Shown: one piece after another, positions 32,130 through 52,774 of the stretch
Layout: every line of letters starts with the position of its first letter
Numbering within the stretch: position 1 is the first letter of the stretch
IMG/VR virus record: IMGVR_UViG_3300014204_000012
Location: 16,013 to 80,012 of that record
Source of the DNA: a virus
Taxonomy: Duplodnaviria > Caudoviricetes
Direction: 5' to 3' (one strand)
DNA: 64,000 nt
Program-made: the position numbers and the translations under genes
The notes under the pieces: model-generated
The model's database searches: none
Told to the model about the DNA's origin: nothing
Seen by the model: the letters and a program-made list of their open reading frames with translations, nothing else

Positions 32130-32297
32130 TTAGTCCTTATTAATAACCTTTTTATCAACCTCCTTTTTGGAGGTTTTCTTTTTAAATACACTTTTCACAA
32201 AAACTACTATTTCGTCCCTGTTCTTCCAGATGAGATCAAGTGCCATTGTTAATAGCACACTTACCCACTTATTCCCTGTCTTCTCTTTTGTTTTCAT
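32130..32297 (-). CDS. 55-aa amphipathic/basic peptide coupled to the endolysin
   Basis: Hand translation MKTKEKTGNKWVSVLLTMALDLIWKNRDEIVVFVKSVFKKK...; ATGA overlap with the endolysin stop. Confidence 0.55.
   Translation of the reverse strand: MKTKEKTGNKWVSVLLTMALDLIWKNRDEIVVFVKSVFKKKTSKKEVDKKVINKD
32157..32180 (+). terminator. Intrinsic terminator
   Basis: AACCTCC-ttttt-GGAGGTT followed by TTCTTTT. Confidence 0.7.
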
Positions 32298-32788: not shown

Positions 32789-32933
32789 TTTTTATTTCAA
32801 AGGTAGGTTTTATTTCCGTAACGGGTTTAAAATGGTGCAATGTGGAAATATTTGATGTTATAAAACATAAACGCTTGCAGATGTCAAAAATTGTTTATAC
32901 CTTTGTACTGTTCTTTGAATGTCATGGTTACAC

Positions 32934-33000
32934 GCACCATATGTGTTGGTACAGGACTGAAATAATAGGTCTTCGGAACCGAAATCCGAATGGTGCACAA
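32934..33000 (+). ncRNA. tRNA-like structured RNA (degenerate cloverleaf)
   Basis: GCACCAT/ATGGTGC stem followed by ACAA, TCGGA-ACCGAAA-TCCGA arm; promoter TACCTTTG at 32898-32905. Confidence 0.45.
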
Positions 33001-33012
33001 AATACTTTCACA

Positions 33013-35096: not shown

Positions 35097-35378
35097 CTGT
35101 ATATATATGTAATTGTATTTGCTCACACATTATAGGTGTGACTTTTCATTATAAATAATATAATTAAAAATATTATGAGACCATACGGAAGAGAAAAGAA
35201 ACTACAAGGAACAGGCGTTTGGAAAAGAGACGTACACCCTCCGAAAGGATATGTAAATTGGTGGGAAAATATGTGTAATTTTCTTTCCAGAAGTAGAATG
35301 AAACAAAACTGGAAAAAAGATGTAAAATGTGAGCTATCCGATAATTACCTTTAAGTATTATATGTAATTCAAGTTATT

Positions 35379-35762
35379 ATGAAAAAACTACTATTGATAA
35401 CACTATTTTCGCTGATAACCATATTGGGTTATTCACAGAATTGGTACAAGGGATACGATCCGTGGATAGCAAAGGATAAGGGGTTACACGTGGGGATTGA
35501 GTTCTTTCTACAATTTTCTGGTACTCAGATAATATTAGGAGATGGAGGAGAAAGGAAATATGCTGAACCTGCTGTTCTTGTAGCTACTTGCCTGGCGGGA
35601 ATAGGAAAAGAGTTTTGTGTTGATTCACAACCCAGTTATAAGGATTTAACAGCAGATGCTGTAGGAATTGTTGCAGGATTTTTATTAAGTAGACAAGTTG
35701 AAAGATGGCACAAGAATAAAGCATACAGGGTACATAAAAGAATGGAAAGGAAACGGAAATGA
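35379..35762 (+). CDS. Signal-peptide membrane protein, YfiM/DUF2279-like
   Basis: MKKLLLITLFSLITILGYS|Q; KDKGLH...GIGKE..D...SYKDLTADAVG. Confidence 0.6.
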   Translation: MKKLLLITLFSLITILGYSQNWYKGYDPWIAKDKGLHVGIEFFLQFSGTQIILGDGGERKYAEPAVLVATCLAGIGKEFCVDSQPSYKDLTADAVGIVAGFLLSRQVERWHKNKAYRVHKRMERKRK

Positions 35763-38182
35763 GTATAACACAAAATTCACAATTGAATATACCTGTTAAC
35801 GTGGGTTTTTGTTTGGAGTGTAATCACTCCTTTAAAACTGATAGAAATGAATGTCTCGACATGTGTGATGATTGTCTTGATGATTTTAAAAGACGAATTG
35901 AAAAAATGAAAGATGCTAATTACATGATGAATGTTATGAGGTCTGCTGTTAGATTTGCTAATGATACCGGTAAGAGAGATGTTGCAGATCGTGCTTTTTT
36001 TGCTTGTCTTTTTCCTGAATTAAAAAATAGTCAAGTTGCTAAAATATTAGCATCTCAAAAAAAAGTTGCCTATGTACGTTCTTAATGTTATTATCAATTA
36101 TTTATAAAATGAAACAAAAATGAGTGGTGGATTTTTTGACTATTACCAGTATCACATTGATACAATAGCCGACAGTATTGAAGGTGTATTGGACAATCAG
36201 GGTAAAGAAAAACCAAGTGATGAATGGGATGGGGGCTATTTAAAGGAATATCCCGTGAAGCTCTACCCGACTTATCCCGAAGTTGTTCAGGATAAAATGA
36301 GAGAAGCCGTAAAACAACTTCGAATAGCAAGGGTTTATGCTCAAAGAATTGATTACTTTCTATCAGGTGACGATGGTGAAGAAACATTTGTTAAACGATT
36401 GGAGAAGGAATTAAAAGATATTGAAAATGAGAAAAGTATTATTTAAAAAGTGGATAACTGAAATACCACAAGGATTAAAATATCCAGATAGAATAGCAAT
36501 AGAAGGAACTAATTGTTGGGAACCTGATTTTATACATAAGGGATTATTTCATCAATGGGCAGCTGCCTATGAAGAATCAACTGCTGGATTTGGAAACTAT
36601 ACAGTTGGTTTAATTGAGTTGCCAGATGGTACAATGGCAGAAGTACTTCCATCAAACATAAAATTTATTGAACCAGTTTAAAACGAAATAAAATGACAAA
36701 TAACGAAATTAAAAATGCTTCAAAATTGAATATGTCGGGAGACCACGCTTATGAAATGGGTTTTATTGCAGGTGCTAACTTTGTCAATGAAAGACAACCA
36801 TACACTGCTGAAGACATGGTGAACGCTTTTGAATGGTTGGAAAGTAGTGGATTCAGACAAATTTTTATCAGTACATGGAGAAGTGTATACTATGAGCCAG
36901 TTTTTTCTACGAATAAACTTTTAAAACTTTGGGAGGAACAGGAATGAAAACAAGTGATGTAAAATGTGGAAGAGAATACGAATATAAAGGGGAGAAGGTC
37001 ACTGTTCTGCAAAGGATATATGGTAAAGAAACAAATAAACCAAATATGCAAAGTGGTGAGCTTTTTACTGGATTTAAGAGAAAAACAAAGAAATTTCTTC
37101 TTTCAAATGGAGAAATTGTATATTCTAAATGGTTAAGTATTTGGGAGGAAAACGAAAATGGATAAGCATATACCACGAATATCAGTTGAACCTGATCCAT
37201 TTATTTATACTGCTGAAGATATAAATAATTTCCTTGTTTGGGCCTTCAGACATTGGGAATACAATGATATTCTTAAGAAGTGGATGTGGTGTATGCCAAA
37301 AGAGGCAACTTCTAAACAAGTCACAACAATTGAACTTTTAAGAATTTGGGAGGAAAGTAAAAATGAATGAAGTAGTACAATATTTACTTGACAAAAAAGC
37401 TAATAATGATAATCAAATTGATCTAAATGCTTATGCACTTGGACTTATTGATATGTGTGTTTATATGCAGGAGTTTGCGGAGTGGACTTGTAAAACTAAA
37501 TGGGCATTTTTAGATAGTACTTGGGTTAATGCCAAGGGTGAGGAAAAAACATCAACAGAACTTTTAAGTGATTGGAAGGATGAACAGAAATGAGTAATGA
37601 AGAGTTAATTGAATATTCCATCCTTTGGTTTGAAGAAATTGTAGAAAAATGTGACAGAATGACTACGGGTAATTTTTCACATGATAATAGACAACTTAAA
37701 GGATTTGCTCAAAGATGCGCTGATTTTATTAAAATACATCATAAAGTGAAGGAGGAATAAAATATGAATCAGAAATCTGCTGATAAACAGAAAAGATTTG
37801 ATAAACTAATGTGGTTTATTATTGCTTTAGTTTACGCCATTGTCTTCGCTGTAATAATTATTTTTTGTGCAAGTATAAATTAAAACACACGGAAATGATT
37901 TCAAGAAAAGAGTATTTAAGTGCAAAATTAACAGTTGAACGGTATGAACTTCAACAGGAGAAACTAAGATTGTCAATGGATGAATGTAAGGTTAAATTTC
38001 CTATTGGATGTTTTGTCATATCGAAACTGAATACAGCAGTAAGAGGTACTGTATATGATTATACCGATTGGGATGGAACCACTCAGTTGTTATGCCATAA
38101 GGAAGATTGTGGTAAAACCAGAATACTTGTGACAAATGCAGTTGTTACATTTCCTGTTAGATTTGCTTGTGAAGTAAAATAA
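35759..38182 (+). other. AT-rich run of short CDSs (35759-36085, 36120-36446, 36421-36681, 36693-36947, 36944-37165, 37158-37370, 37363-37593, 37895-38182)
   Basis: 36120-36446 is of the MSGGFFDY...LSGDDGEETF family; several share a YTAED...W...T.ELL..W pattern. Confidence 0.65.
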
Positions 38183-38283
38183 GAATTACGTTATTGTATT
38201 TTAATTGTTAAAAGTAAAATAAAAGATTGAACCACAAATCGAATAAAACAGTTATCTTTGTATTGAATTTAAAAACAAATGAC

Positions 38284-38505
38284 ATGTCAGAAGATCGTAG
38301 GGGGTTTTTGACCCCGGAGCAAGAACAGAAACTTGACGATTTGATCGTCTTAAAAGGTATCCCGGAAGTTATTGATGGAATCGCTATCAGAATGGCCGAC
38401 AACACGGGATTAGAGAAGCTGAAAGCCAAATTGCTGGCTGAAAAACCGGAACTGCTACCGTTCATCTATGAAGTGATTGACGAGATTTTTGCAGCATTGC
38501 CGTAA
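38284..38505 (+). CDS. Hypothetical protein with its own promoter
   Basis: MSEDRRGFLTPEQEQKLD...; TATCTTTG at 38253-38260. Confidence 0.65.
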   Translation: MSEDRRGFLTPEQEQKLDDLIVLKGIPEVIDGIAIRMADNTGLEKLKAKLLAEKPELLPFIYEVIDEIFAALP

Positions 38506-38522
38506 CCCGGTTTTATCAAATG

Positions 38523-38555
38523 AAAAGAGTGACCTTAAAAAAGCCACTCTTTTTT
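38523..38555. terminator. Bidirectional terminator where the two transcription blocks converge
   Basis: AAAAGAGTG...CACTCTTTT inverted repeat with A/T runs on both sides. Confidence 0.75.
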
Positions 38556-38635
38556 GTTTTAAGACACTTTGCGACTACAATATACAAATACCCCACTTAA
38601 CGTAGATAATTGATTGTAGAGCCTCTCACACGCAT

Positions 38636-38848
38636 CTACGGGGCTTTGGGGTCTTTACTTATGAGTAGCAATAACGCCGCAATAACAGAACCCACATAGA
38701 GGATAATATCACCGGTGTCAATACCGAAGAAATCCTCCGGTTTGATACCACACAGCCGCAACACAATTACGAATATCATTGCGATACCCATTCCGGTAGT
38801 CAGTTTACTGCCACCGATGTTCCCAAGTGTTGACCTGTCCAGTTTCAT
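38636..38848 (-). CDS. Holin-like two-TM membrane protein
   Basis: MKLDRSTLG...GMGIAMIFVIVLRLCG...IILYVGSVIAALLLLISKDP; last gene of the late module. Confidence 0.55.
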   Translation of the reverse strand: MKLDRSTLGNIGGSKLTTGMGIAMIFVIVLRLCGIKPEDFFGIDTGDIILYVGSVIAALLLLISKDPKAP

Positions 38849-41829
38849 AATCCCGATGAATACCAAGTCCCAACACCACCAACCATACGATACACCAAGC
38901 GATACGCACCATAGTATCCATTTGTATCGAGTAAATTGTACACATCGAAGTTCTGTGTAGCCACATCTGGATCACCGGGATCGTCAAGGGTTATCACCAC
39001 CCGCATATATGTCGGATAGAAATAATGACGTGAAGCTATTAAATTCACATAGTCATACGTCGGACACAAGTCCAATACTTCCTCGTGCATACCGCCACCG
39101 TAGTTGGCGTACCTACCCTTATACGACACGTATGCGGTTATGCTGTCCTGAGTGAGAACAGTACGTGTCCACGAACCATCAGATAATGACCACGCACCAA
39201 CCTTAAATGTTCCATTGAAATCGGTAAGATTATAGAATGCTGTCGTATTGGGAACATCTAATGTTGACGGAGCCGTACCACAGGTATTAGCTATGGAATC
39301 GGTGTATCCGTCTACGGTCTTCTGTAACAGGATTTGTATGGTGTAATTCGGATCGTCGTAGGACACATTTGTTGTGTCGTAATGCGTGTACATCTTCGGA
39401 TACGTCACCGTTGTTCCGTCACCACAAAGTGCATTTGAAGACGCCGAGAACATCAACAGTTTGTAGTGGTTTACATTCTCCGGGTCACTGGAATACGATG
39501 TCATTTTCGTACTTGCCAATACAGTAAGCATCGAGTTCTTAAACAGATTGTAGTCGGTAAGGTTACGAGCCACCAGTTTAACCGTATCACTTGACTTGAT
39601 ATAAGAGATGGAATCGGTGAATGTCCGGCAACTATATCCCGAAGACGGAGTTTCCAACCACGCACAGTTTACATTCCTATTAAGGGATATTTTGAAGTCA
39701 TTACCCCAACGGTTAGATGTGGGAACGTAAGTCATGTTTGTTGCCCACCCGGATGTTTCAAAGATGTAATGCTGTACGTCATTCTGGATGTGTGCTGACT
39801 TATTTGAATAGGTTAAATCATAAGTCCCTGCTGAACCGTTCCACACCATCGTTATTGCTGCCGTGGTGTCAATAGTCTGGTAGTCCTTTTCAAATGGTGT
39901 ACACAGGTCGAAGTCCAGAGTGTCCAAGCATTTCCATGACAACCTCCAGTTGGTATTCGTGGAATACGGATCAATCTTGAACTTGATCTTATCCCCTGTG
40001 GCAACTGTTGGGAGTGTCGTTATCTTATTGAAGTACGATGAATATATATTGTGAAGTGGGAAGTTATAAGCACCATAAGCCGTACCCACCTGCCATGTCT
40101 CCAATAGGGTTTCAGTGGCTCCGTGGACAAAATAAACCCTTAAAGTGTCTATAACGTTCTCACCATAGAAGAACCACGGCACATAAGAAGTCGTCGCATC
40201 CAAGTCCATCGAAATCTCCCTGGTGGGGAGTTCGTCGGTATTCAACTCATAAGAATACGACACCGAATGTTCGTAGGCAATAGCTCCTTCCGTGTATCCA
40301 CTTCCGTTATCACAGATATAAGCTGCTGACACCACATCCGAGAGACAGGTGGCAAGATCTGGACTGTATGTACCCTGTTGTGTATAGGCAGAGACGTATT
40401 TCTCACCATTTACATACACCCATCTGATCACAGGGGTATAGGTTCCGCTAACTACAGGCATAGCACTCGTAAACGGCTGTAACACGTAATTGGTTATCCC
40501 TGCACCACTGGTGGCCGTGGTGAACTTAAATACGCCCCCCACATACCAGTCAATAACATAGTCACCCACCGTGGCTGTGGTGGAAGACAAGTCACCGATG
40601 TCAAGGTGTCCCACAGTCGGAACTATATCAGCGAGGTACAAGTTGGCAAAGTCACACATCTGAGCGGTAACAGTAACAGTGTCGCAAGGTGCAATAATGT
40701 CACAGATGTTCTTCCATCCAAAGTCACAGTCTGCATTGCTCAATTTGACAAGCACCTGACCTGCTAAACCACCCGGGGGAACGGGACAGCCATTGAGGGA
40801 GACGATAACACTGTCTGAACCTATCTTAATGTCTATTAAACTATCACCCTCCTCAACGTATAGCACGTGGTTATTGAACACTGTATCAATGTCGCCATCA
40901 TTCGCCACTATCCAATACACGGAATCCAGATCAGCAGTTCCACTTGACGTATTGATGTGTACCTTCCGGTGTCCTCCTGCACTCACATCGTACACGGGAA
41001 CCCAATCAAGAGTGTCGTAAGTTGAAGTGGTTAGTTCAGGAATGTCCATGTTCACAATCACGTTCCCGCTGGAGCTAAAGTAACCACCACCACCAAGTCC
41101 AATCCCTGCTGTCACACTTAGTTTAGTGGGATCAAAAGCAAGTACAATGGTGTGATCGGTGTTGTTCAGACTTATCGCCATGAAAGCCGAATCCACATCA
41201 ATTCCCCGGAAGTAGAATACATTGTCTGTGGTATTGTTCCACACCCCTATTCCTTCGTGGTTGCCATTCTGAGCATCGTAGAACCCTGCTGAATCAAACA
41301 CCTGTGTAATCGGTATCCAATATGCCTTACCGTTTATGTTTTGCAGTATATCCCCGGAGACACCGTCTGTGGCATTTAGTTTCGTTATCCTCAGTGAATC
41401 CCCGTCAAGAAAATAAAAGTTATTTGTGTTTATGGAATCCTCCACTTCCAGTGAGTTCATCACATGAACATCATACACGTTTGTATTGTATATTCCACCG
41501 TGAGTGTCCCTTTTCCACAGGGGATCGAGTAAGTCGAGAATCTTCAATACTTTCCAATTATACTTTACGTTATTGGACACTCTAATGTAGTTGTCACCTG
41601 TAACCCATAGCTTGTGCCAGTTAATTGAATCGGAACTGAACTGATGGTAGGTAACATCGAGAACCGGAATTATGGTATCCCGGTATGCAAAGTAACTTTG
41701 TGAGAACAGTGTGTCCCGTGCCATAAGGTTTCTATCATAGTCCCCTACGGTCAATGTGGATGGTGACACCACTGCCTGACCAAATCCAATCACGGGTATA
41801 AATAACAACAAAAACAAAAGTCTTTTCAT
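38845..41829 (-). CDS. 994-aa fibre-like protein with Sec signal peptide
   Basis: True start MKRLLFLLLFIPVIGFG|Q at 41829 (promoter TATCTTTG at 41851-41844); fibre motif PPGGLAGQVLVKLSNADCDFGW; 14 Cys; 21 D[ST][AILVMT]. Confidence 0.75.
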   Translation of the reverse strand: MKRLLFLLLFIPVIGFGQAVVSPSTLTVGDYDRNLMARDTLFSQSYFAYRDTIIPVLDVTYHQFSSDSINWHKLWVTGDNYIRVSNNVKYNWKVLKILDLLDPLWKRDTHGGIYNTNVYDVHVMNSLEVEDSINTNNFYFLDGDSLRITKLNATDGVSGDILQNINGKAYWIPITQVFDSAGFYDAQNGNHEGIGVWNNTTDNVFYFRGIDVDSAFMAISLNNTDHTIVLAFDPTKLSVTAGIGLGGGGYFSSSGNVIVNMDIPELTTSTYDTLDWVPVYDVSAGGHRKVHINTSSGTADLDSVYWIVANDGDIDTVFNNHVLYVEEGDSLIDIKIGSDSVIVSLNGCPVPPGGLAGQVLVKLSNADCDFGWKNICDIIAPCDTVTVTAQMCDFANLYLADIVPTVGHLDIGDLSSTTATVGDYVIDWYVGGVFKFTTATSGAGITNYVLQPFTSAMPVVSGTYTPVIRWVYVNGEKYVSAYTQQGTYSPDLATCLSDVVSAAYICDNGSGYTEGAIAYEHSVSYSYELNTDELPTREISMDLDATTSYVPWFFYGENVIDTLRVYFVHGATETLLETWQVGTAYGAYNFPLHNIYSSYFNKITTLPTVATGDKIKFKIDPYSTNTNWRLSWKCLDTLDFDLCTPFEKDYQTIDTTAAITMVWNGSAGTYDLTYSNKSAHIQNDVQHYIFETSGWATNMTYVPTSNRWGNDFKISLNRNVNCAWLETPSSGYSCRTFTDSISYIKSSDTVKLVARNLTDYNLFKNSMLTVLASTKMTSYSSDPENVNHYKLLMFSASSNALCGDGTTVTYPKMYTHYDTTNVSYDDPNYTIQILLQKTVDGYTDSIANTCGTAPSTLDVPNTTAFYNLTDFNGTFKVGAWSLSDGSWTRTVLTQDSITAYVSYKGRYANYGGGMHEEVLDLCPTYDYVNLIASRHYFYPTYMRVVITLDDPGDPDVATQNFDVYNLLDTNGYYGAYRLVYRMVGGVGTWYSSGL

Positions 41830-41855
41830 AATTCTATTTTGTACAAAGATAACAC

Positions 41856-41901
41856 AAAAAGAAATGCCCCTGTGGGCTCCTGAGAGACCCGTAGAGGCAT
41901 T
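41856..41901 (-). terminator. Long hairpin terminator
   Basis: ATGCCTCT...AGGGGCAT followed by TTCTTTTT on the minus strand. Confidence 0.65.
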
Positions 41902-42022
41902 ATCTTCTGAAGTTGATAATTTGTTCACCTGTACCCAAAAACACCCGTACAGGCGTTGTGGCGTGTCGTATAACCGCTGACTAACCATGCGGCATAGATC
42001 AATATAAGTGAACCCAGGATCA

Positions 42023-42316
42023 TCATTGCTCTTTTACTTTTACTTCTGGTGCTGACAGAATCCTTGTTACAAAGCCCACATCGGCACGACTGAATCCACT
42101 AAACACGTCAATGGCTTTCTTCACTTTCTGGTAATCCACTTCTTCAAGGAGTACGGAATCATCAGATGATTCGATCTTCTTTGCAAGTTCATCCTGAGTG
42201 ATAACATCCCTCCCGGAGAGTTTCAGTTCAGGGTTGAACAATAGGTTGACAACTGACGTCTTTACGTCATACGGTCTTTCGTCAACCTGATACGGTGTTA
42301 AATCAATCTTTCTCAA
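42023..42316 (-). CDS. Small helical protein, candidate fibre assembly chaperone
   Basis: 97 aa, TTG start, follows a fibre/spike gene; the assignment is positional. Confidence 0.5.
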   Translation of the reverse strand: MRKIDLTPYQVDERPYDVKTSVVNLLFNPELKLSGRDVITQDELAKKIESSDDSVLLEEVDYQKVKKAIDVFSGFSRADVGFVTRILSAPEVKVKEQ

Positions 42317-42449
42317 TCTGGAATGTCTTTTTTAATAATTACGGGTTCCTCTTTTTCTTTTTTCTTATCTGTTTTCATATTGAAAATGTTTTAATTGCAC
42401 AAAGTTACGGAATTGTTTTATTAAAACCGTAATTTTGCACAATATTTTA

Positions 42450-44246
42450 TCAATAATCTGCATACACGGGAATGAACCCAGGGGTACCATTCATGTCAAT
42501 CTGAATCTTAGCGATAGTTGCAGCCGCAGGACTACCGGTATCAGCGGTCAAACATCCGGCTTGTGCATTGAAATCAATCAGGTTCGTTACATTGGCAGTA
42601 CCATTGATCTGAATAGCCGCATTCACCGTTGAACCAACGTCAATGTGTAACATGGACTGCACAACTGAATTAGGTACACCCACTTCACTGACAATGGAAA
42701 CACCGTGGCACATTTGCGTTACGGTAGCACCGGCAGCACCATCAATGATAAACAATCCAGCGTTTACCCATCCCTTAGCTACGGTCTTATTTCCGGTTAA
42801 AAATGCCTTACCTGATATAGCGGTTAAGTGTGCGTTATCACCGGTTGTGCTTACATCGTCCGCAATAGTTAAATGTGATTGTAATGCGTAAGCATCCCAG
42901 ATGTTCTTACCTACACTGGCACGTGCCATTAAGGTTGCCAACTGGTGATTAGGCTGGTGTGCGGTTGTATTTGCTGTTTTAAAGTAGGCAGCACCGATGG
43001 TCTGGTCTCCACTTGTGCCCGCATCCGCAACGGAAACAATGTTCACCTGAACCGGGACAATACTGGCGGTTGGTGTTAACGACTTCGCTGTGTTAATGTC
43101 ACCGTACCCCAGAATGAAACTCCCCACACCCTGTACCATCGTGGAACTTGAAAAGTCAATACCCTTTGTTAGAGTACCGGCAAAGTTGATACCGGTTCCG
43201 ATGGTATTGGCAAACCCGATTCCCGTGGTTAAAGTTCCTGCTGAGTTCTCAATGCTTATGCCTTTTGTGGCTGTGCCATGAGTAACATCCACCAGGATAA
43301 CCTCACTAACTGTTGAACCCGTACCATTCTGTAAGGCCACAAAGACGTTATCAACAGTTCCAGCCGCATTGGTATTGTTGTTCACCGCAACGAGTACCGA
43401 ACAATCATTTGCGCCCGCCTTGGTGATCTGTCCTGAACCCTCAATGGAGAAATAACCACCAAGTAAACTACCTGTGCCAACGGTAACAGCCGCAGATACG
43501 TTCACAGAGGCGTTTAAGATAGCCGAAGATGCAACAGCATGTGCAAGGTTCTGTCTTAACTGAAGACACCCCACAGCGGCAAGCGCATTAGTGGCACCGG
43601 TGTCAACCCTCAACCGGGCAGCAGCAACATCAAATGCTACGTTCCCACTGTTCTTAATGTTGACCTGAATAGGAACCCAGTGATCACCTGCCAGCGTAAC
43701 GGCCATTGGTGCATCCCAACTACCGATGTTGATGAACGGCGTGTTTCTTGCTCCTGTACCTGCCGTGGTATAAGCAACAACAGATGGAGTAAGGGACTTG
43801 AAATTAGTGGCAGCGATAGACGCAGGAATGGCACTCGTGGTGACAAACACATTGGTTCCGGTTGGTGAACTTGCTGAACTAATAGCCGAAAACTGGTTGG
43901 CTGTTAAGTTGTAAGTAGCCACTGTACCCGCTGTCCTATATGTGGGTTTTTCAGTACTGGCCTCCACATATGCTGAACCCGTACCTGCTGAAATGCTTAA
44001 TGTCAACACCCAACTACCGGCTTCCAAATACGAATAATCGTATGGAAATTCGTAACGTGTGTTTGCTGAAGTTAGTGTCACCGTGCCCAGTGTGGTTGCA
44101 TCTTTCTTTATTGTCGCCACTGCCCCCGCTGAGGAAGACGACACAGACACCATTTTAACACAGTACCCCTCTGGTATTCTCCAAGTGGTAGATGTGGTAA
44201 AGGAATCTATTACCCTGTTTATACTCCTGTCTCTTGTTGTTTTCAT
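42450..44246 (-). CDS. Tail fibre/spike-like beta-rich protein
   Basis: Rich in A/T/G/S/V; internal duplication (VPIQVNI / VPVQVNI); C-terminus IQIDMNGTPGFIPVY; promoter TAACTTTG at 44267-44260. Confidence 0.65.
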   Translation of the reverse strand: MKTTRDRSINRVIDSFTTSTTWRIPEGYCVKMVSVSSSSAGAVATIKKDATTLGTVTLTSANTRYEFPYDYSYLEAGSWVLTLSISAGTGSAYVEASTEKPTYRTAGTVATYNLTANQFSAISSASSPTGTNVFVTTSAIPASIAATNFKSLTPSVVAYTTAGTGARNTPFINIGSWDAPMAVTLAGDHWVPIQVNIKNSGNVAFDVAAARLRVDTGATNALAAVGCLQLRQNLAHAVASSAILNASVNVSAAVTVGTGSLLGGYFSIEGSGQITKAGANDCSVLVAVNNNTNAAGTVDNVFVALQNGTGSTVSEVILVDVTHGTATKGISIENSAGTLTTGIGFANTIGTGINFAGTLTKGIDFSSSTMVQGVGSFILGYGDINTAKSLTPTASIVPVQVNIVSVADAGTSGDQTIGAAYFKTANTTAHQPNHQLATLMARASVGKNIWDAYALQSHLTIADDVSTTGDNAHLTAISGKAFLTGNKTVAKGWVNAGLFIIDGAAGATVTQMCHGVSIVSEVGVPNSVVQSMLHIDVGSTVNAAIQINGTANVTNLIDFNAQAGCLTADTGSPAAATIAKIQIDMNGTPGFIPVYADY

Positions 44247-44274
44247 TATGTGTTTTTTACAAAGTTAATTCATT

Positions 44275-44964
44275 TTAAAAATAATAATTGTATAATGATG
44301 TTTTTTCAGCAGAAGATAATTCCCTATTAAAAACATATACTTGATCTATTTTAGAATCAGATTTATAATTTAAAAGTCCACCTACTGAAAATATAGCATT
44401 AAGAGAATTGAAACTAAGAGTAGCAGCAAGCGTCGCAACACTTTCGACTCCATCATCCATTTTGAATTTCATTTGATTACTCGCCGCATCCTTGTCATAA
44501 CTTGCGCAGAAGAAATGCCAATTTGATGTATCCGAAAGGGTTATGTCTATATGGTTTGAAGATGCCCCCACCGTTGACCAATGACCACAAAAAAACCTTA
44601 TTTTACCCCCCTCGTAGATAATACCATAACCATCATTCCATAAAGCCTGATTTGTACAGCAAACAAAAGGATCATCATTTGACAATGAATCTGCTTTCAT
44701 CCAAAATGAGATAGTAAATTTACTCAGGTAGAACGGTGAAGCATCATTAACATAATAGCCAATTAAATAAGCATCATTATTGAAATCATATGCTTTATCG
44801 CTAATATCATTTCTATCTGATGTTAAATTAGCACCAACATTTTCTTTAAAATGGTACCCATTACCAGATGTATCATTAATATTACCAGTAAAATCATATC
44901 TTGCGAGTAATCCAGATGGCATTATAAAACCACCAAATCTATATGGATTTAAAATATATCCCAT
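44275..44964 (-). CDS. LamG / concanavalin A-like lectin domain virion protein
   Basis: MGYILNPYRF...ARYDFTGNINDTSGNG...FTISFWMK...HFFCASYD...IDQVYVFNRELSSAE. Confidence 0.8.
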   Translation of the reverse strand: MGYILNPYRFGGFIMPSGLLARYDFTGNINDTSGNGYHFKENVGANLTSDRNDISDKAYDFNNDAYLIGYYVNDASPFYLSKFTISFWMKADSLSNDDPFVCCTNQALWNDGYGIIYEGGKIRFFCGHWSTVGASSNHIDITLSDTSNWHFFCASYDKDAASNQMKFKMDDGVESVATLAATLSFNSLNAIFSVGGLLNYKSDSKIDQVYVFNRELSSAEKTSLYNYYF

Positions 44965-45013
44965 TTTGTATTTTTCATGTACGTTAAACAACGGATTGAT
45001 TGACCTCTCCATA

Positions 45014-45559
45014 TCAGACACCCGTTTTTTCCCATCCCTCGTCTATATTCGGTTCCAACCCTGATGTTATCTCTGCTACCTTTGTCTTTAATGCCACATC
45101 GTTCTTCCATATCTTCACAGCCAACGCCAGTATCTTATTCTTTATCTCCTGTTCACTCGTGGTAAGTTTCATTCCGGATACCTCACGAAAGATCGTTGCA
45201 ATCCCAAGTGTTATCAATTTTAACTGTTCGGTGAATGGAAAAACCTGGTTATTCGCATCATTCTCTGCGTTGATTACCGACGTCTGTATGTCTGCTGCTG
45301 GTCTCTTGGGTGTATTAAAAGTAATTTGATACTGATTCAACCAATTATATTCAGGGTGTGGAATAGATGTAATAGCCTCCACCCTGTTAAGAATGAATAT
45401 TCTTGAATCATAGTCCGGCTCTGCACAAGGTTGTGTCTTAATTAACCACTCCAAATCTGGATCAAGACCCGAAATCGGTTGCATATCTTCACGTGGATAA
45501 TCTGCGTGTTTAAGAATCTCGCCTGTACTCTTTCTAATCAAAACTGCTGGTGTTCCCAT
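45014..45559 (-). CDS. Fibre-associated hypothetical protein
   Basis: 181 aa between fibre genes. Confidence 0.55.
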   Translation of the reverse strand: MGTPAVLIRKSTGEILKHADYPREDMQPISGLDPDLEWLIKTQPCAEPDYDSRIFILNRVEAITSIPHPEYNWLNQYQITFNTPKRPAADIQTSVINAENDANNQVFPFTEQLKLITLGIATIFREVSGMKLTTSEQEIKNKILALAVKIWKNDVALKTKVAEITSGLEPNIDEGWEKTGV

Positions 45560-45578
45560 AATGTTATTTATTTTTAAT

Positions 45579-47759
45579 TTACCTGTATCCTTCTAAAAAC
45601 ACTTTTAATCCTGCACCCGCAATGGTGCTACCAATCTGATCAACGTCAAACGTCAACAGATCATTTTTGTGTAACTGATAACTACTTGCTGCACCTGTGA
45701 AAGTTGATGTCTCCGCATATGTACCAGATGCCGCAATAGTCAACACTGCATTTAATATTGTTGTTCCACCGTCTTCAATGTCAACCTGCAAGTCAGAGTC
45801 CGTAGGAGCCGTCTTACAGGTCGCATACGCCCTCGTAACCTTAAAGTCGAATGGAACATTAACCGATAGCTTTTCGCCCGTTGTAAGGGCTGTGGTCTCG
45901 TCTGACAGGCAATAACCGGTGACCTCAAGCGCTGTCTTACTTGACCTCAATGAAAGCGATGTCATGTACTTCGCATCGTCTGTTCCGGTATCTACATCGG
46001 TGTATGCCGCCTTTGTTAGTGCCGCCTGTTTGTTGTTAAACGTATTCCAATCCGTTGAAGATAAATACCCGTCTACACTCGTTGATGCCGCCTGCGTTGC
46101 TACGGTCTTCTGTGCGTCTGTAAAGTGTTGATAATTTCCACCTGCCGCATTTAACCCCGCAAGGTTATCGTGTAATGTTATAAGCGGTGTTGAAAAGTGG
46201 GTGCTGTGGGTTGTTCCATTGTAAGCAACGGTAACACTCGTGGTGTTGTTGCTCGTAATGAAACCCATTTGACCGAACTTGTCCGTTACGGCAATGGCAA
46301 AAGCACCCTGAACACTTGTCTGATCGTATTGGAGATAATTAGTTCCAGTTGATGTTATAGTAGGTGACGTTGAACCAAATAATTTGTTCCACACATTGAA
46401 CGTAACAGCATTCTCATTGGAATATCCCGTTGGAACAATTATAGTCGCTGTATTTACATCTGATATTGCTGATATTTGATATATCCCAGAAGGGGTTTGC
46501 AGATAGGAAGCCACCGTGTTCGTGGCATTAGCCGCAAAGTAAGTTCCTGCAAACTGACTGGAAGTTATTGTTGCTGTCCTTGTATTTGCACCTACTCCGG
46601 AAGTTGTCACACTCCCAGAAGCCACAGGAACAACCTGATAAATCTGTCTTGTCACTGTGGTTACCCTACCACCTACAACAGAGTTCACAGCAGCAAAGGT
46701 GGTGAAATCCCATGTTCCTGCATCTATGGTTGTCCTCCCTAATGCGGTATCATACAGCCACGCCACATAAGCACGTGTATCACTTGCCGCCTGTCCTACG
46801 ATTGTTTGTTCTGCGGTAACCACAGGTGTCTTTGAAAGCGAAGCAACCTGTATTCCATTACCTGCCGTACCGTCCTGTTTTAGTCCAGTAGGAGTTGTAA
46901 TTGAATTTATAACTGGTGTACTATTGTAAAACTCAATACCTGCACTTGCTGAACTCGTCACGGGGGCACCGTTTACCCATTCTGTTCCATTAAACCTCAA
47001 CACCTGATCCGCAACGGCAGAACTAACAACAACGTCACTTATGTCATTTAGGGTTTGCATTGGCCGTATATTAACATACACCCTACCCACTGATGGGTCT
47101 TTGATCATTACCCTACCGACACGGACTTCGTATCTACCAGCACTTATAGAAGTAGCAAGTGTACCGGCGGTGTCACCAAGATAAAGTGAATCCCCTACGT
47201 TAAATGAGTTTGTGTTTAGTCCATTTACGTGCCCCCTGATTGTCACATGACCATACACCGAATCTGCTATGGATGCCGTTGTAACAACACCCAAAACAAA
47301 TGCCTTTGACACATCTGAATTATCCGCAAGTGCAATGGTGGGATACCCCCCGGATGCCCCGCTGATATAAACAACATTACCGGCTACCAAAGGAGAACCG
47401 GTATTATTTAGGCAATACGCTTGTGTTTCCTGCCCAACCTGTATGGTAACATCGGTATCAACTTCAATACCCATTGTCCTCCATAGTGCATCAAAGAATA
47501 CCTTTCCCTCTGCAAATGTTCCCACCGTTGGTGATGTATCCAATAAAAACCCTTCTCCAAATGTGGGTCTTCCGTTTATCACTGTTTGCGGTGTGGTTTG
47601 ATCCAACAGAAGCGTTGATGCACTCGATATGGGTGTAATCATAACGGGGTCAAGACCAGAATCAAATCCCAATACTTTCCCGTTCTCCGCTAATACCGAC
47701 TTTTCATCAAAAGTTCCACCGGAGTTCTCTTTTACTAATTTATATGTTCCGTCTGCCAT
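45579..47759 (-). CDS. Tail fibre protein, no signal peptide
   Basis: LNDISDV...ADQVLRFNGTEWVNG fibre repeat; C-terminal SDETTALTTG...TAPTDSDLQVDI...GSTIAGAGLKV module. Confidence 0.75.
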   Translation of the reverse strand: MADGTYKLVKENSGGTFDEKSVLAENGKVLGFDSGLDPVMITPISSASTLLLDQTTPQTVINGRPTFGEGFLLDTSPTVGTFAEGKVFFDALWRTMGIEVDTDVTIQVGQETQAYCLNNTGSPLVAGNVVYISGASGGYPTIALADNSDVSKAFVLGVVTTASIADSVYGHVTIRGHVNGLNTNSFNVGDSLYLGDTAGTLATSISAGRYEVRVGRVMIKDPSVGRVYVNIRPMQTLNDISDVVVSSAVADQVLRFNGTEWVNGAPVTSSASAGIEFYNSTPVINSITTPTGLKQDGTAGNGIQVASLSKTPVVTAEQTIVGQAASDTRAYVAWLYDTALGRTTIDAGTWDFTTFAAVNSVVGGRVTTVTRQIYQVVPVASGSVTTSGVGANTRTATITSSQFAGTYFAANATNTVASYLQTPSGIYQISAISDVNTATIIVPTGYSNENAVTFNVWNKLFGSTSPTITSTGTNYLQYDQTSVQGAFAIAVTDKFGQMGFITSNNTTSVTVAYNGTTHSTHFSTPLITLHDNLAGLNAAGGNYQHFTDAQKTVATQAASTSVDGYLSSTDWNTFNNKQAALTKAAYTDVDTGTDDAKYMTSLSLRSSKTALEVTGYCLSDETTALTTGEKLSVNVPFDFKVTRAYATCKTAPTDSDLQVDIEDGGTTILNAVLTIAASGTYAETSTFTGAASSYQLHKNDLLTFDVDQIGSTIAGAGLKVFLEGYR

Positions 47760-47770
47760 AATCTATATTT

Positions 47771-50700
47771 TTACCACGAGGATAACGGGGTTCTTTTCCA
47801 AACACTGTCTTGTACACATACATAAAAATAATTAATATCGTATGCCATTTGTCCAGCCATACCCGGTGATGTCTTTGTTGCTGGTGCTGCCACCCACAGG
47901 GTAGGTGAAGTTGGGTCTTGTTCTACTACGTTACCACTTGCGTCAACTGCTAAGAACTTTGTGGTTATTCCAGAGAATGTACCCGATCCATATTGGTCAA
48001 GTCTCATACTTCCATCACCTCTTATTGAGAAAAATGGAACAGTACCAAGATAATTGTAAACAGATAAGGCATCCTGCAAACTTGTGTCACCTGCCAATAT
48101 TTTAACACCATTACAGGTTGCAATGTTATTAGCAAAATATCCAGTATATCCACTATCGCAATCATTTACAAAGTACCCCGCATATCCTATGCTATCTGAT
48201 CCAACCATTCCCTGTACTCCCATATACGATCCACTTGACGTTGACCCTATACCCTGTCTTCCCTTCTTGGCGGCAAAATAACCACCATACGCATTAAATA
48301 AATTAGAACTTGTGGCGTTTATGGCATAAGTAGCATCTGTTTCAACATACAATCCATTTTTTGACGTATTACTTAATATAGACACCTTGTATAAGGTATC
48401 AGCAGGAGTGCCAATACCAACATTGTGATCGGTTGGACTTAAGTCAACACTGTTTCCATAATGTATCCACCCATATGTGGTCAATGAATCATGTACCTGT
48501 TCTGGTGTTGCAAAATTCATGGTGCTATCCGATACTGCCGTTATCCTACCTTTTTTATCAACAGTCAAATGGACACTCTTTAATTTGCTACCAAATGATC
48601 CCACATTTGCATTTACACTATCGAGGGTTGTGATAATCGGAGTCCCTGTTACACCCGTTCCAGTTACGTCACCATCCAGTTCAATATCTGAGTTGGTCAC
48701 AGGTTGTATTATACCCCCCTGAAGTTTTATATAGTCCATGTAAAAACCGATATGAGTTGATGGTGATAACCCCGTCTTTGACCACCGGTATGCAATTCCA
48801 TTGAATGTATTTGAACTAAAGTTCACCGCTGTTAATGGTAGACTTATGTTCTGCCACGTGTTTGTGAGTGCCTTGTTTATAGGCAGTACATACGGCATTG
48901 ACACCGCATGACCATTATAAGTAAATGTTACGTTTATATTCTGTCCGGAATACATCGTAGCCCTTAACTTAAAGTAGCTAATCAAAGTTGTGTAGTCCGA
49001 AGATGTTAAATCACCCGTGTGCGCAAACTTAATTGAATCATTACTCCCTACATTACTTATTTTAATATCCTTAACGCCACTAAAAACACCCGTTCCATTG
49101 TTGAAATCCGATGTTACGCCAACTGTTGTTCCTGTCCACTCCACGTTTTCATCGTACACCATTTCATCCGATGTGATAACGGTGTCCATATCGGTAACAC
49201 CAGCAGGAACCAATACCACCGTTAACTCAATTTGATATGACGGGTCTATTGTGGGTTTCTGTGGGTTTGCGGCAGGAACACCGGTCACGAAGTCAACTGT
49301 ACCCGTGGTGTCCACAACGATAATATCCAATCGGGGTAAGGTTACATCTGCCGAATCCAATGTCACACTGTCTGTGGGTGACGTATATAGTTGTCCTTCG
49401 ATATAATAAGCAGCAGGACTAATGTCAAACTTAAACCCTGTTCTCCACGATACATTGCCCCCGCTTATTAACCCATTAGGTTTTATGAGTGTGGTTACAT
49501 CATAGTCAACGCTGTCCTTTGTGTATCTTAAATACTCAATAGGAAACAACGAATCTCTAACTGCAAACACATCGGTTACAGAAGCCGAATCCTGTGCAAA
49601 GTCATATATGCTTTTGTCGAACTCAAAATACAAACTATCACTATTCCACACGGGAAACTGACCATCTGTGGGTGAACCATACACATCCGATAAAAAGGTT
49701 AGTTTCTGGAATATGGCACGGGACACAAATATCTCACCATTTCCAACTCCCTTAACCTGACACACACCCACACCTACGCTATTCAACGGAGGTTCCGGTC
49801 TTGTATTTGTTAATGTTCCCATTGCAGACACAAACACCGGCAATCCCTCTGTAAGGCCACTGGTATTTATCTGGTGAACCACCCCAAGAACCGTGACAAG
49901 TCCATAATCGTTTTTTACAATGTCTTGGGTTGTCACACCAATAAAGGTCATGGACAATGTGTCACTCGATATATCCGTCTTGACAACGTCAACATGAGAC
50001 CCACTTGCACTCACAAGACTAACCGGTGTACCATCTGGTATGGTAGTACCAGTCTTATTCCTTACCCTCACTAATGTTTCTTGACCTAACTGAAGAATGA
50101 CACCATCCGGTAGTCCCAAGTCAACGGTTTCCTCTGTGTTGTTCCACGAAAACCTTCCAATATCTTTGGAACTCGTTGTCGTTGTGTCAATTTGCACATA
50201 CGAAGTCGTAATACCATTTGTGTATATCCCATTTGTGGTGACACTGTCGTTATCGGTTACAAACTGTAAGTCTAAAGTATCTGTGTTGAACTCGGTAACA
50301 TCAATAGTATGTGGACTAACATTTCTCCACGTGGAATCAATGGTGGTAAACCTCAGTAATTGTCCCTCCGATGCACTATCTGTTACAACATCGAGAAAGT
50401 CAGATAAGTTAACAGTAGAAAAGTCTATCGTTAATCCCAGTGAATCATTAGGCATAATCGCCAGATAATGTATCCACGTGCTATCCATTGTTCCCAACGC
50501 TGTAAACCCTGCTGTGTCCTTTAAGGAGTAGTTTAGGTTTTGTCTTGCACCATTAGGATACGTGGCATACAATCCTGCCACCACGTATGTCGAATCCGGT
50601 AATGGTGTGCTGAATGTTATCCTGTTGTCCCCAGGCGGCATCCACACGCGCCCTGTACGGTAAAAGTCGTTTATTCCATACACGTTGCTACCACCACCCA

Positions 50701-51685
50701 CACTATCGGGGAATAGAATTGATATTTCTCCGTTTCCCCTGTCAACGAGGTGATCGTCTGCAACCCTTATTTTATTTACGCTGGTCACATAAGGATAACC
50801 GTCTTCCTCCATAACAGTTAATGGCGACCCACTGCCACCATTACCCGCTATCCACTGATTTGTTATGGAATCCCATGTTAACACCTGTCCATCCGTGGGA
50901 AATGCGTTAACATCGAGGGCATCGTTTATGTTTATCTGTAATAAATGCGAATGAGAAGCCGCAGACACCACGTTCATACTCGTTCCCGTTATGGTATCAG
51001 GAGTACCCAAATCAATGAAAAGTGTGTCATTAAGATATGTCGGTGTCAGTCCATCCCGTGCTATTATCACAGTGGAATCACCCGCCCCGGTGCCATACAG
51101 GTCGTCCCCGGCTATCCACTTCTGCACTCCTGCACTCCACTTCAATACCTGACCATCTGTCGGGTGTGCATCCACATCCTTAATATCATTCAGATAAAGG
51201 AATACAACATGAGTGTGTATAAGTGAATCCTGATAATTTGTGGTGGTTCCCGTCAGTGTATCCGGCATGGGTATTTTGATACTCTGCACATCATACAGGG
51301 TGTCTATCTGACTGCCGTAGTCAATCACTAAAGTATCTATCCTGCCACTTCCCTGTGTGGTATCTATTTTACCATTACACGTGCAAAAGTTAAATACCCA
51401 CCACGAGGCATCCGGGTGATAATCCGGTGCATCCGAAGTGGAGTTGTCAATGTAATTATTAAACCTGATATAGCAGTCCCCGGCATGGTAATCCTTGCTC
51501 CACGTGATACTATCAGCACTGAACTCGTGATATGTAATATCCAACACCGGAACATAAATGTGCCTATAAATGAAACTATTTTCTGTTTCAGTTATGTCGG
51601 TGCTTAAAATGTGGCGTTCCACTATCCCCTGTGAGAAGGCAATAGTGGAAAGCAGTAAAAAGAATATCGTTAATATTTTTCTCAT
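47771..51685 (-). CDS. 1304-aa tail-fibre-like protein with Sec signal peptide
   Basis: MRKILTIFFLLLSTIAFS|Q; repeated L.D..DV...PTDGQVL.W motifs; C-terminal GQMAYDINYFYVCVQDSVWKRTPLSSW; 36 D[ST][AILVMT]. Confidence 0.8.
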   Translation of the reverse strand: MRKILTIFFLLLSTIAFSQGIVERHILSTDITETENSFIYRHIYVPVLDITYHEFSADSITWSKDYHAGDCYIRFNNYIDNSTSDAPDYHPDASWWVFNFCTCNGKIDTTQGSGRIDTLVIDYGSQIDTLYDVQSIKIPMPDTLTGTTTNYQDSLIHTHVVFLYLNDIKDVDAHPTDGQVLKWSAGVQKWIAGDDLYGTGAGDSTVIIARDGLTPTYLNDTLFIDLGTPDTITGTSMNVVSAASHSHLLQININDALDVNAFPTDGQVLTWDSITNQWIAGNGGSGSPLTVMEEDGYPYVTSVNKIRVADDHLVDRGNGEISILFPDSVGGGSNVYGINDFYRTGRVWMPPGDNRITFSTPLPDSTYVVAGLYATYPNGARQNLNYSLKDTAGFTALGTMDSTWIHYLAIMPNDSLGLTIDFSTVNLSDFLDVVTDSASEGQLLRFTTIDSTWRNVSPHTIDVTEFNTDTLDLQFVTDNDSVTTNGIYTNGITTSYVQIDTTTTSSKDIGRFSWNNTEETVDLGLPDGVILQLGQETLVRVRNKTGTTIPDGTPVSLVSASGSHVDVVKTDISSDTLSMTFIGVTTQDIVKNDYGLVTVLGVVHQINTSGLTEGLPVFVSAMGTLTNTRPEPPLNSVGVGVCQVKGVGNGEIFVSRAIFQKLTFLSDVYGSPTDGQFPVWNSDSLYFEFDKSIYDFAQDSASVTDVFAVRDSLFPIEYLRYTKDSVDYDVTTLIKPNGLISGGNVSWRTGFKFDISPAAYYIEGQLYTSPTDSVTLDSADVTLPRLDIIVVDTTGTVDFVTGVPAANPQKPTIDPSYQIELTVVLVPAGVTDMDTVITSDEMVYDENVEWTGTTVGVTSDFNNGTGVFSGVKDIKISNVGSNDSIKFAHTGDLTSSDYTTLISYFKLRATMYSGQNINVTFTYNGHAVSMPYVLPINKALTNTWQNISLPLTAVNFSSNTFNGIAYRWSKTGLSPSTHIGFYMDYIKLQGGIIQPVTNSDIELDGDVTGTGVTGTPIITTLDSVNANVGSFGSKLKSVHLTVDKKGRITAVSDSTMNFATPEQVHDSLTTYGWIHYGNSVDLSPTDHNVGIGTPADTLYKVSILSNTSKNGLYVETDATYAINATSSNLFNAYGGYFAAKKGRQGIGSTSSGSYMGVQGMVGSDSIGYAGYFVNDCDSGYTGYFANNIATCNGVKILAGDTSLQDALSVYNYLGTVPFFSIRGDGSMRLDQYGSGTFSGITTKFLAVDASGNVVEQDPTSPTLWVAAPATKTSPGMAGQMAYDINYFYVCVQDSVWKRTPLSSW

Positions 51686-52281
51686 TATACACGTATTACA
51701 GCGAAATATGAAAGTCTACCAGCACGGATAACATCACCCACGGTGAACCCATTTGCTGTTCTGGAAGTCACAATCAAGTTATGTTGTAACATTCCGTTTG
51801 TGGCTATTACAGTGGCATCAAGTTCGTAATCCGCAGTTGCTAAAGGCGTGGTGAATGTAACATTGTTCACGCCAACCACACAGTCCACTGTCTGTGCCCT
51901 GTAATGGTCTGCACTGGAAGGAACAACCACAGGTGTAGGCACAACAAACGGAGGCACAGGTGTCGGGTTGGGATCGGTGTCGTCTGGAGCATAGTACTTG
52001 CTTAAATCCACGTCTTCAAACATACCGTGATAATGTTCAATCTTACCAAGTATCTCTATTAAGTTAGCCTCACTATACACGGCATTGCCACACATCAAAC
52101 TTCCACCTACGATGTCACAGTTATCCACAATACCCATTAGGTAGTGTATCCTGTGGCACTCCTGAAACCACTTTTGAAACCCTCCGTTAAATGAAAAAAT
52201 GGCATCCAATACACCATTCCCCCACTCAATAGTAGTCCTGGCACAGTCGGCCTTTATAACATTAAGTGTTGCTTCATTCAT
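51685..52281 (-). CDS. Virion protein with C-terminal H-type-lectin/gp53-like beta domain
   Basis: NNVTFTTPL...Y...TANGFTV...YFAV after a Pro-rich linker. Confidence 0.6.
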   Translation of the reverse strand: MNEATLNVIKADCARTTIEWGNGVLDAIFSFNGGFQKWFQECHRIHYLMGIVDNCDIVGGSLMCGNAVYSEANLIEILGKIEHYHGMFEDVDLSKYYAPDDTDPNPTPVPPFVVPTPVVVPSSADHYRAQTVDCVVGVNNVTFTTPLATADYELDATVIATNGMLQHNLIVTSRTANGFTVGDVIRAGRLSYFAVIRV

Positions 52282-52774
52282 AATTCAGCATTTCTTTTAT
52301 CAACCCGTGCCTCATATCGAAGTCTTCCTGTTTCTGATAGGCAACGTCTATGGTTTCTATGAGGTTCATTTCACTCAGCATCACATGGCACACGTGCAGG
52401 TTCTCATCCACCAAGTATTTATGCGCATACACGTTCACCAACCCCTGTTTGCTGTAAACCTTTTTAGTGGCCTCCAGGGTGATCCCAACACCGGGATGGT
52501 CACTTACCTGTCCGTTTCCTGAACTGAAATGTACCGTGTACCACCCATCTAATACGGCATACGTGGCACCCAAAAGGTCAACAGTTAAAACATCTGTCCT
52601 GCCATTTGTAATCAATTCTGTGGGTTCTGAACCTGCCAGAGTGTAGGTATTTACCAATGTACCACCACTGTAAACCGCAGCCACAATCGGTGCTGTAATG
52701 GTCTGTGTGTCTTCCTTCTTTATGGTTACGACATCCTGTGCCCTGTTCTTCTGAAGTTTTATCTGGAAACTCAT
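52274..52774 (-). CDS. Hypothetical virion protein
   Basis: 166 aa; promoter TATCTTTG at 52796-52789. Confidence 0.55.
   Translation of the reverse strand: MSFQIKLQKNRAQDVVTIKKEDTQTITAPIVAAVYSGGTLVNTYTLAGSEPTELITNGRTDVLTVDLLGATYAVLDGWYTVHFSSGNGQVSDHPGVGITLEATKKVYSKQGLVNVYAHKYLVDENLHVCHVMLSEMNLIETIDVAYQKQEDFDMRHGLIKEMLNYE

Follow-up and report, generated by a model that had tools for sequence, protein, structure and literature searches.

Leader-bearing, sequon-rich fibre-like proteins of a probable Bacteroidota phage: candidates for Sec export and host O-glycosylation

Tailed-phage particles are taught as being built wholly in the cytoplasm, and in the known case of phage glycosylation phage enzymes act there. 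The glycoproteomic site logo of Bacteroidota O-glycosylation has a nearly obligatory aspartate, then serine slightly more often than threonine, then L, I, V, T or A; motifs engineered into exported proteins get glycosylated, and site occupancy is near complete (review PMC12871550). This review, from 2025, contains no mention of phages. A glutamine at position +1 of the cleavage site, the Q-rule, is specific to Bacteroidetes substrates of signal peptidase I (SPI; PMC5837995, PMC10653852). Here we analysed a window of 64,000 nucleotides (nt), bases 16013-80012 of the 80,012-bp IMG/VR virus record IMGVR_UViG_3300014204_000012, which is complete with direct terminal repeats. On its minus strand are genes for two fibre-like proteins, fibre A (47771-51685; 1304 amino acids, aa) and fibre B (38845-41829; 994 aa, 14 cysteines), that begin with predicted signal peptides and contain 36 and 21 sequons, counted as D-S/T sites with A, I, L, V, M or T next. 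Positions are those of the window unless given as genome positions.

The N-terminus of A is MRKILTIFFLLLSTIAFS followed by QG. It consists of MRK, a 14-residue uncharged hydrophobic core and A-F-S before Q (aa 1-19; 51629-51685, minus strand), and this leader is kept in relatives. That of B is MKRLLFLLLFIPVIGFG followed by QA, with MKR, a 13-residue uncharged hydrophobic core and G-F-G before Q (aa 1-18; 41776-41829, minus strand). A longer open reading frame (ORF) for B reaches 41988, and seven orthologues begin at the same MKRLLF. Leaders were called with our own hydrophobicity and charge rule together with inspection of residues -3, -1 and +1, which is a heuristic and not SignalP. The Kyte-Doolittle maximum over 10 residues was 2.8 for A and above the 2.2 cut-off for B, and the leaders have no acidic residues. 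Small residues at -3 and -1 with Gln at +1 were observed in all four such leaders of the genome, the other two being S-L-G before Q in a 164-aa protein (4/4 sequons) and G-Y-S before Q in a 127-aa protein (0/1); these are the only leader-bearing ORFs with Gln at +1 besides A and B. An (A/G/S)-Q junction was present in 30 of 30 clusters of the protein family described below. These features make it very likely that A and B are exported by Sec, SPI being the predicted processing enzyme.

Other routes and markers were considered. Neither A nor B has a C-terminal sorting domain of type IX secretion cargo (TIGR04183 or TIGR04131; NCBIfam and Pfam), and the leader is followed by Gln, not Cys, with no lipobox as expected of a lipoprotein cut by signal peptidase II. 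Cysteine content did not discriminate when taken as an indicator of folding in the periplasm. The 127-aa protein (35379-35762, plus strand) lies in a plus-strand non-structural region and weakly matches families of YfiM-type and phage lipoproteins. A leader-like start, MKFIKILILFVSLNCFS followed by Q, also opens an ORF annotated as DNA polymerase in Maribacter phage Panino (L028:19341-21899); the likely cause is that the start was called wrongly or that an exported ORF upstream has become fused to it.

Sequons made up 36 of the 38 D-S/T sites in A and 21 of 23 in B, together 57/61; the counts in six neighbouring proteins were 4/10, 0/3, 1/4, 0/1, 0/1 and 0/1 (5/20). With 2000 composition-preserving shuffles the expectation was 9.6 +/- 2.8 for A (maximum 22) and 6.3 +/- 2.4 for B (maximum 14). 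The observed counts, at z of about 9 and 6 and together about 3.6 times the expectation, were reached by no shuffle. An earlier sequence-only reading of this DNA had placed two fibre-like ORFs at the coordinates and starts given above, ascribed signal peptides to both and counted the sequons by hand. Its ORFs and its counts for fibres and neighbours were reproduced exactly, its signal peptides agree with the tripartite leaders called heuristically here, and the sequon density on which it built stands clear of the shuffled controls.

The excess is specific to the motif. At position -1 Asp alone was enriched (z 10.8), the other 19 residues falling between -2.6 and 0.7. At position 0 enrichment was seen for Ser (10.7) and Thr (5.0) only, and at +1 for L (9.5), I (5.8), V (4.9), A (3.0) and T (2.6), with all others depleted. 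The reversed motif was at expectation (z 0.1). These residue preferences agree with the published site preference. Sequons are distributed along the whole length of A and B at 2.1-2.8 per 100 aa, a density that looks high at about 3.6 times chance, chance and not the exported proteins of the host being the baseline. None of the other ORFs of at least 120 aa in the 80-kb genome had a z above 3.4. Glycosyltransferase families GT2 (PF00535) and GT4 (PF00534) were absent from the complete phage genome in a search limited to these two families, in which positive controls matched; therefore any sugar would come from the host. Taken with the leaders, these signatures indicate that A and B are probably glycosylated.

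Similarity between A and B is limited to the first ~80 mature residues (37% identity, E 1e-14, BLASTP). This N-terminal domain, hereafter the N-domain (aa 20 to ~100 of A; 51386-51628, minus strand), contains a conserved DS(I/L/V) sequon and is a candidate docking module. Searching the N-domain without its leader against 1.84 billion representative proteins yielded 43 clusters, in which every full-length member has a leader ending in (A/G/S)-Q. The 30 leader-bearing clusters, which share less than 50% identity, had sequons at 341 of 446 sites, 2.4 times expectation. Members range from ~450 to 2000 aa, with a constant N-domain and variable distal parts, which, judged by sequence, is the architecture of receptor-binding proteins.

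The enrichment extends across homologues, as the sequence-only reading would have it, and follows the leader. Five related IMG/VR phages share a gene order of a giant protein, proteins of ~165, ~170 and ~195 aa, and an exported fibre, and these fibres have 13/16, 15/26, 18/24, 26/28 and 26/28 sequons. A protein in the same syntenic slot of another phage contig (P0039 in L013) begins at the position aligned to the mature N-terminus; it has no leader and 0/3 sequons. The sequon count was 12-22 in the seven leader-bearing orthologues of B, and 12 of the 21 sites in B are common to at least six of eight close homologues. Leaderless distant homologues of B (P0051-53) had 2/4, 4/6 and 2/4. Their neighbours on another phage contig are large proteins without annotation, in what we read as a putative fibre module; in L021, a 79-kb JGI contig, a leaderless homologue of B follows an unusual pair of proteins, of 1133 and 1519 aa, that are extremely rich in cysteine (119 and 131 residues). 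When six related phages were pooled, 16 leader-bearing proteins had 172/217 sequons (2.9 times expected) and 105 leaderless proteins had 104/290 (0.79 times expected), a Fisher odds ratio of 6.8 with p 5e-23 that overstates the evidence in that homologues are non-independent. No sequon excess was found in the leaderless fibres of Cellulophaga phage phi38:1, Maribacter phage Panino and cyanophage syn9 (gp108); the tail fibre of Pseudomonas phage Rollin had a mild excess (11/16, z 2.3). The sequon excess is confined to leader-bearing proteins and is conserved in relatives. We also noted gp084 of phi38:1 (L011:44184-44783; 199 aa), which is encoded after an amidase. This protein carries 3/4 sequons (z 5.4) and a hydrophobic stretch at its N-terminus, and might be a periplasmic lysis protein of the spanin type that is glycosylated as well.

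The pattern is wider than the two fibres, because the 164-aa protein pairs a leader with sequons in six phages. Its gene (genome 9334-9828, minus strand, outside the window) comes directly after that of a 468-aa protein which, from its position after the portal and a scaffold-like gene and with no family match, is the candidate major capsid protein. This pair occurs in all five relatives, where the smaller protein always begins with a Q-rule leader and contains 3/4 to 5/7 sequons, one of them invariant at 30-42% identity. A pattern scan for close relatives of the 164-aa protein found none, and its homologues were obtained by synteny beside the capsid-protein homologue. Its structural model (pLDDT 80) is a jelly-roll resembling carbohydrate-binding modules (CBMs), with generic fold-search matches at template-modelling (TM) scores up to 0.5. 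Its role may be that of a capsid decoration protein that is exported.

The large terminase (TerL), portal, tail protein and a virion structural protein were matched by PHROGs, showing that this is a tailed phage. TerL matched 87 phage records, whose hosts were all Flavobacterium, Cellulophaga, Tenacibaculum or Maribacter (Flavobacteriia), or which were uncultured, and homologues of the tail protein were those of crAss-like phages of Bacteroides, Polaribacter and Porphyromonas (Bacteroidota). These matches make a host among the Bacteroidota very probable, as the sequence-only reading had supposed, the relatives of the phage being of Flavobacteriia type; the Q-rule leaders point the same way. 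An alignment of the N-domain against a genome collection gave a single match, on a contig binned into a Thermoplasmata metagenome-assembled genome, which we judged to be a mis-binned or chimeric phage fragment of no value for the host.

Whether A and B are parts of the virion is a separate matter, for which homology and a cultured relative are informative. The start of A overlaps the stop of the upstream gene by 1 nt, among late genes that overlap or follow one another closely, and by this arrangement A is a translationally coupled member of a late tail-gene operon. That upstream gene (51685-52281, minus strand) encodes a 198-aa leaderless protein (0/1 sequons) that by synteny in L004-L008 and L013 lies directly upstream of the exported fibre; a 166-aa leaderless protein (52274-52774, minus strand) is conserved in the same block. 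The central domain of A (aa 497-682; 49640-50197, minus strand) matches annotated tail fibres of Pseudomonas phage Rollin (42% identity, E 7e-24) and of Nitrincola and Roseobacter phages in tblastn searches. A paralogue of this domain is present in a leaderless neighbour of 726 aa (45579-47759, minus strand), which serves as an internal control (4/10 sequons, 4.8 expected). The last 125 residues of A (aa 1180-1304; 47771-48148, minus strand), which end in ..YD.NY.Y....W.RTP....W, match the C-termini of cyanophage proteins annotated as structural, such as syn9 gp108 ('structural protein; putative fiber'). Pfam gave no match on A or B, Peptidase_S74 included; PHROGs gave one weak tail-fibre-connector match on A, and the N-domain had no match among 50,697 phage records at E up to 1.

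An AlphaFold model of B had a pLDDT of ~80 over aa 390-994 (38845-40662, minus strand) and below 50 over residues 1-388. The confident part is predicted to form several CBM-like beta-sandwich domains. Foldseek matches to B were generic beta-sandwiches only (CBM, MAM and reelin-type; TM ~0.1 for the multidomain model), and fold searches with the models of B and the 164-aa protein gave no specific fibre or decoration-protein match. ESM Atlas look-alikes of residues 1-300 of A were uninformative.

The cultured relative is Cellulophaga phage phi18:3 (NC_021794.1, Pachyviridae), which has homologous TerL, portal and structural proteins gp114/115. Its gp085-087 (32891-38583) have Q-rule leaders (G-Y-S, V-S-A and L-N-A, each before Q) and are annotated as 'structural' or 'tail protein', the basis in the GenBank record notes being experimental tandem mass spectrometry (MS/MS) proteomics. 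The terminal motif of A also ends gp086. In another relative, G004 (92% complete), the fibre region comes after the tail and giant-protein genes, and every large fibre-like protein encoded there is leader-bearing. On balance we favour attachment of A and B to virions, from homology and from this cultured relative.

These observations suggest the following sequence of events. The late fibres A and B, with host-type Sec/SPI leaders, would cross unfolded into the periplasm, and the 164-aa jelly-roll protein would do likewise. SPI would cut before the Gln, which host glutaminyl cyclase would convert to pyroglutamate, and the host general O-glycosylation system would modify the D-(S/T)-(L/I/V/A/T) sites (36, 21 and 4 in the three proteins). 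The fibres would then fold in the periplasm, probably as trimers, and be docked by the N-domain on particles of cytoplasmic assembly, either when the inner membrane has been opened by the holin or after lysis. The steps up to glycosylation are suggested by strong sequence signatures, and folding and docking by homology and the cultured relative. A leaderless endolysin fits a large-hole holin, which lets particles mix with the periplasm ahead of outer-membrane failure. Such a holin would fit here because the endolysin candidate, a 164-aa SLT lytic transglycosylase (Pfam SLT and PHROG; 32294-32788, minus strand), has no leader and is putatively cytoplasmic. The benefit, which is speculative, would probably be to stabilise or shield the most exposed parts of the virion. 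For the chain as a whole, from Sec export through host O-glycosylation to docking on virions, we hold the case to be evenly balanced. More tentatively, a wide set of Bacteroidota phages might share a periplasmic branch of tailed-phage morphogenesis in which two fibres and a jelly-roll protein are exported, capped with pyroglutamate, coated with host O-glycan and added at the holin breach, so that each virion would wear the glycan of the cell that produced it. With respect to the sequence-only reading, its leaders and its sequon excess hold, and the motif specificity of the excess, the link of excess and leader and a phage without GT2 or GT4 give it partial support in silico. The virion role that it proposed is one we infer from relatives, and the purposes that it offered, shielding, solubility or host mimicry, are speculative.

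Several points weigh against exported, glycosylated fibres on the virion. The support for this phage comes from its sequence, leader calls are heuristic, homologues are non-independent samples, and we infer both the host and its possession of an O-glycosylation system. The N-domain family had no cultured member among the phage records searched. B stands apart from the operon, separated from the 598-aa gene by a 620-nt non-coding gap (41830-42449) and adjoining a holin-like gene, and its homology to known fibres is limited to the N-domain. Leaderless fibre-like proteins (726, 598 and 248 aa) are also present and could be the actual receptor binders. In phi18:3 the three leader-bearing proteins are sequon-poor (1/5, 1/7 and 1/3, that is, 3/15 against ~10 expected), so export does not imply dense glycosylation and the two are separable traits; their detection by MS/MS could reflect co-purifying envelope material. 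Finally, we know of no documented tailed phage that adds periplasmic parts to its particles.

The strongest alternative, which we consider unlikely but worth weighing, is that A and B undergo export and O-glycosylation without becoming part of the virion, acting in the envelope of the infected cell or as free factors at lysis. They could serve in receptor masking or superinfection exclusion, in adhesion of infected cells, or as soluble glycan-binding or glycan-degrading derivatives of fibres, and would then resemble the leader-bearing, fibre-like MAT adhesins on the surface of Bdellovibrio. Sec alone leaves proteins in the periplasm, B and its analogues adjoin lysis genes, CBM-like beta-sandwiches are modelled for the distal domains of B as well as for the 164-aa protein, and the leaderless fibre candidates are encoded by the same phage. 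The MAT proteins have the same layout of signal peptide, conserved ~130-aa domain rich in beta structure, fibre and variable tip (PMC10769870), and Q-rule leader proteins of Porphyromonas gingivalis prophages have been read as envelope modifiers (PMC10367356). However, A is translationally coupled within the tail-gene operon and has known fibres among its homologues, the leader proteins of phi18:3 are annotated as found in virions, and under this alternative no obvious variable receptor binder would remain in G004. The leaderless orthologue in the L013 slot further argues that the basic job of these proteins needs no envelope.

A second alternative is that the proteins are exported virion parts whose sequons are sparsely or not at all glycosylated, the host having no such system or the sites being buried, and that the excess is a structural feature of beta-rich fibres folded in the periplasm. 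The exported virion proteins of phi18:3 manage without sequons, the fibre of Rollin, a phage of a host outside the Bacteroidota, shows its mild excess, and the host assignment here is a probable one. Against this, the residue preferences fit the glycoproteomic logo at each position, down to the favouring of S over T and the L, I, V order, with no excess when E, N or another residue is at -1. The excess follows the leader and not the fold, the 726-aa paralogue and leaderless homologues being without it, and such sites are occupied nearly completely in exported proteins (review PMC12871550). We therefore regard this account as improbable. That the N-terminal stretches are no functional leaders, the proteins fold in the cytoplasm and the motif excess stems from repeats or composition is very improbable even though leaders were called without SignalP and A has some short internal repeats with IDTL and PDT motifs, given the leader and Gln in 30/30 clusters of less than 50% identity, sequons over the full length of both proteins, shuffles that never attain the observed counts and cytoplasmic proteins of the same genomes at 0.79 times expectation.

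Between A and B lie three further leaderless module proteins (42450-45559, minus strand) of 181, 248 (Laminin_G_3 lectin fold) and 598 aa, used as controls with 0/1, 1/4 and 0/3 sequons. Overlapping the 3' end of B is a gene for a 76-aa protein (38636-38866, minus strand) with two hydrophobic segments; by its sequence it is a candidate holin, and it had no family match. Exported fibres adjoin the endolysin in relatives and in phi18:3 also. A 55-aa hydrophobic ORF (32130-32297, minus strand) comes after the SLT ORF, and these two minus-strand ORFs are surrounded by a block of plus-strand genes. A further gene encodes a 2584-aa protein (52812-60566, minus strand) with no Cys, an HEVVH zinc-peptidase-like motif and no family match. 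It is kept in all relatives (2500-2880 aa), parallels phi18:3 gp123 and is depleted in D-S/T sites (6 versus 17 expected). The homologue of PHROG 14478 and phi18:3 gp114-115 (virion structural) appears as a 5'-open ORF at 62917-63999 (minus strand) and an 843-aa ORF at genome 1-2531 (minus strand). Because it appears both at the window end and at the genome start, the record ends may cut one gene, and the 'terminal repeat' may be an assembly overlap of a circularly permuted genome. Sequence searches of the PDB with the capsid-protein candidate and the tail protein as queries gave no match.

If the proposed chain holds, it would be an unrecognised extracytoplasmic assembly step that needs Sec, signal peptidase, glutaminyl cyclase and the O-glycosylation locus, each a possible resistance or dependency factor of the host. 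Virions may then bear a host-strain-specific glycan coat that could affect stability, protease resistance, adsorption and, in gut relatives, immune recognition. Sequon-rich, leader-bearing fibres would be a simple marker for assigning uncultured phages to Bacteroidota hosts, and recombinant receptor-binding proteins would need export and glycosylation to yield native material. Phage phi18:3 offers a cultured system in which the export step is testable.

Among described systems, Bacteroidota O-glycosylation and Q-rule SPI substrates (PMC12871550, PMC5837995, PMC10653852) have the same form of leader, Gln at +1 and three-residue sequon with its preferences, and the phage proteins look like ideal substrates; the known substrates are cellular envelope proteins, whereas these are phage proteins. 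Like A and B, gp085-087 of phi18:3 are large tail-region proteins with Q-rule leaders that adjoin lysis genes, with MS/MS virion annotation and, in gp086, the tip motif. They differ in having no N-domain of the A/B family and in being sequon-poor, and we found no discussion of their leaders in print (the original phi18:3 paper not being covered). The MAT fibres of Bdellovibrio bacteriovorus share, by description, the layout of signal peptide, beta-rich N-domain, phage-like trimeric fibre and variable tip, and show that fibre folds can mature after Sec export (PMC10769870). They are cellular proteins on the predator's own surface, many with an S74 chaperone domain that Pfam did not find in A or B, and have no reported glycosylation signature. 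Mycobacteriophage virion glycosylation likewise places sugars on exposed virion proteins of tailed phages. There, phage-encoded enzymes act in the cytoplasm on capsid and tail-tube proteins. It differs in its phage glycosyltransferases from the phage studied here, which has no GT2 or GT4 and for which the route would be Sec export and the periplasmic system of the host.

Secreted endolysins such as Lys44 of fOg44 (PMC6116005) are also phage gene products that use host general secretion, but are lysis enzymes. The P. gingivalis prophage proteins share export and the Q-rule but are small, of unknown function and with no sequon loading reported (PMC10367356), and neither they nor Lys44 are large fibre homologues in a tail operon. 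Our literature search on exported or host-glycosylated tail fibres found nothing, the nearest remark being that on the P. gingivalis leader proteins (PMC10367356). The present case adds a distinct family of fibres joined by a common N-domain, natural controls in the form of leaderless orthologues, and an exported protein beside the capsid candidate, together with a tip motif that links A to an MS/MS-annotated virion protein and the contrast with the sequon-poor exported proteins of phi18:3.

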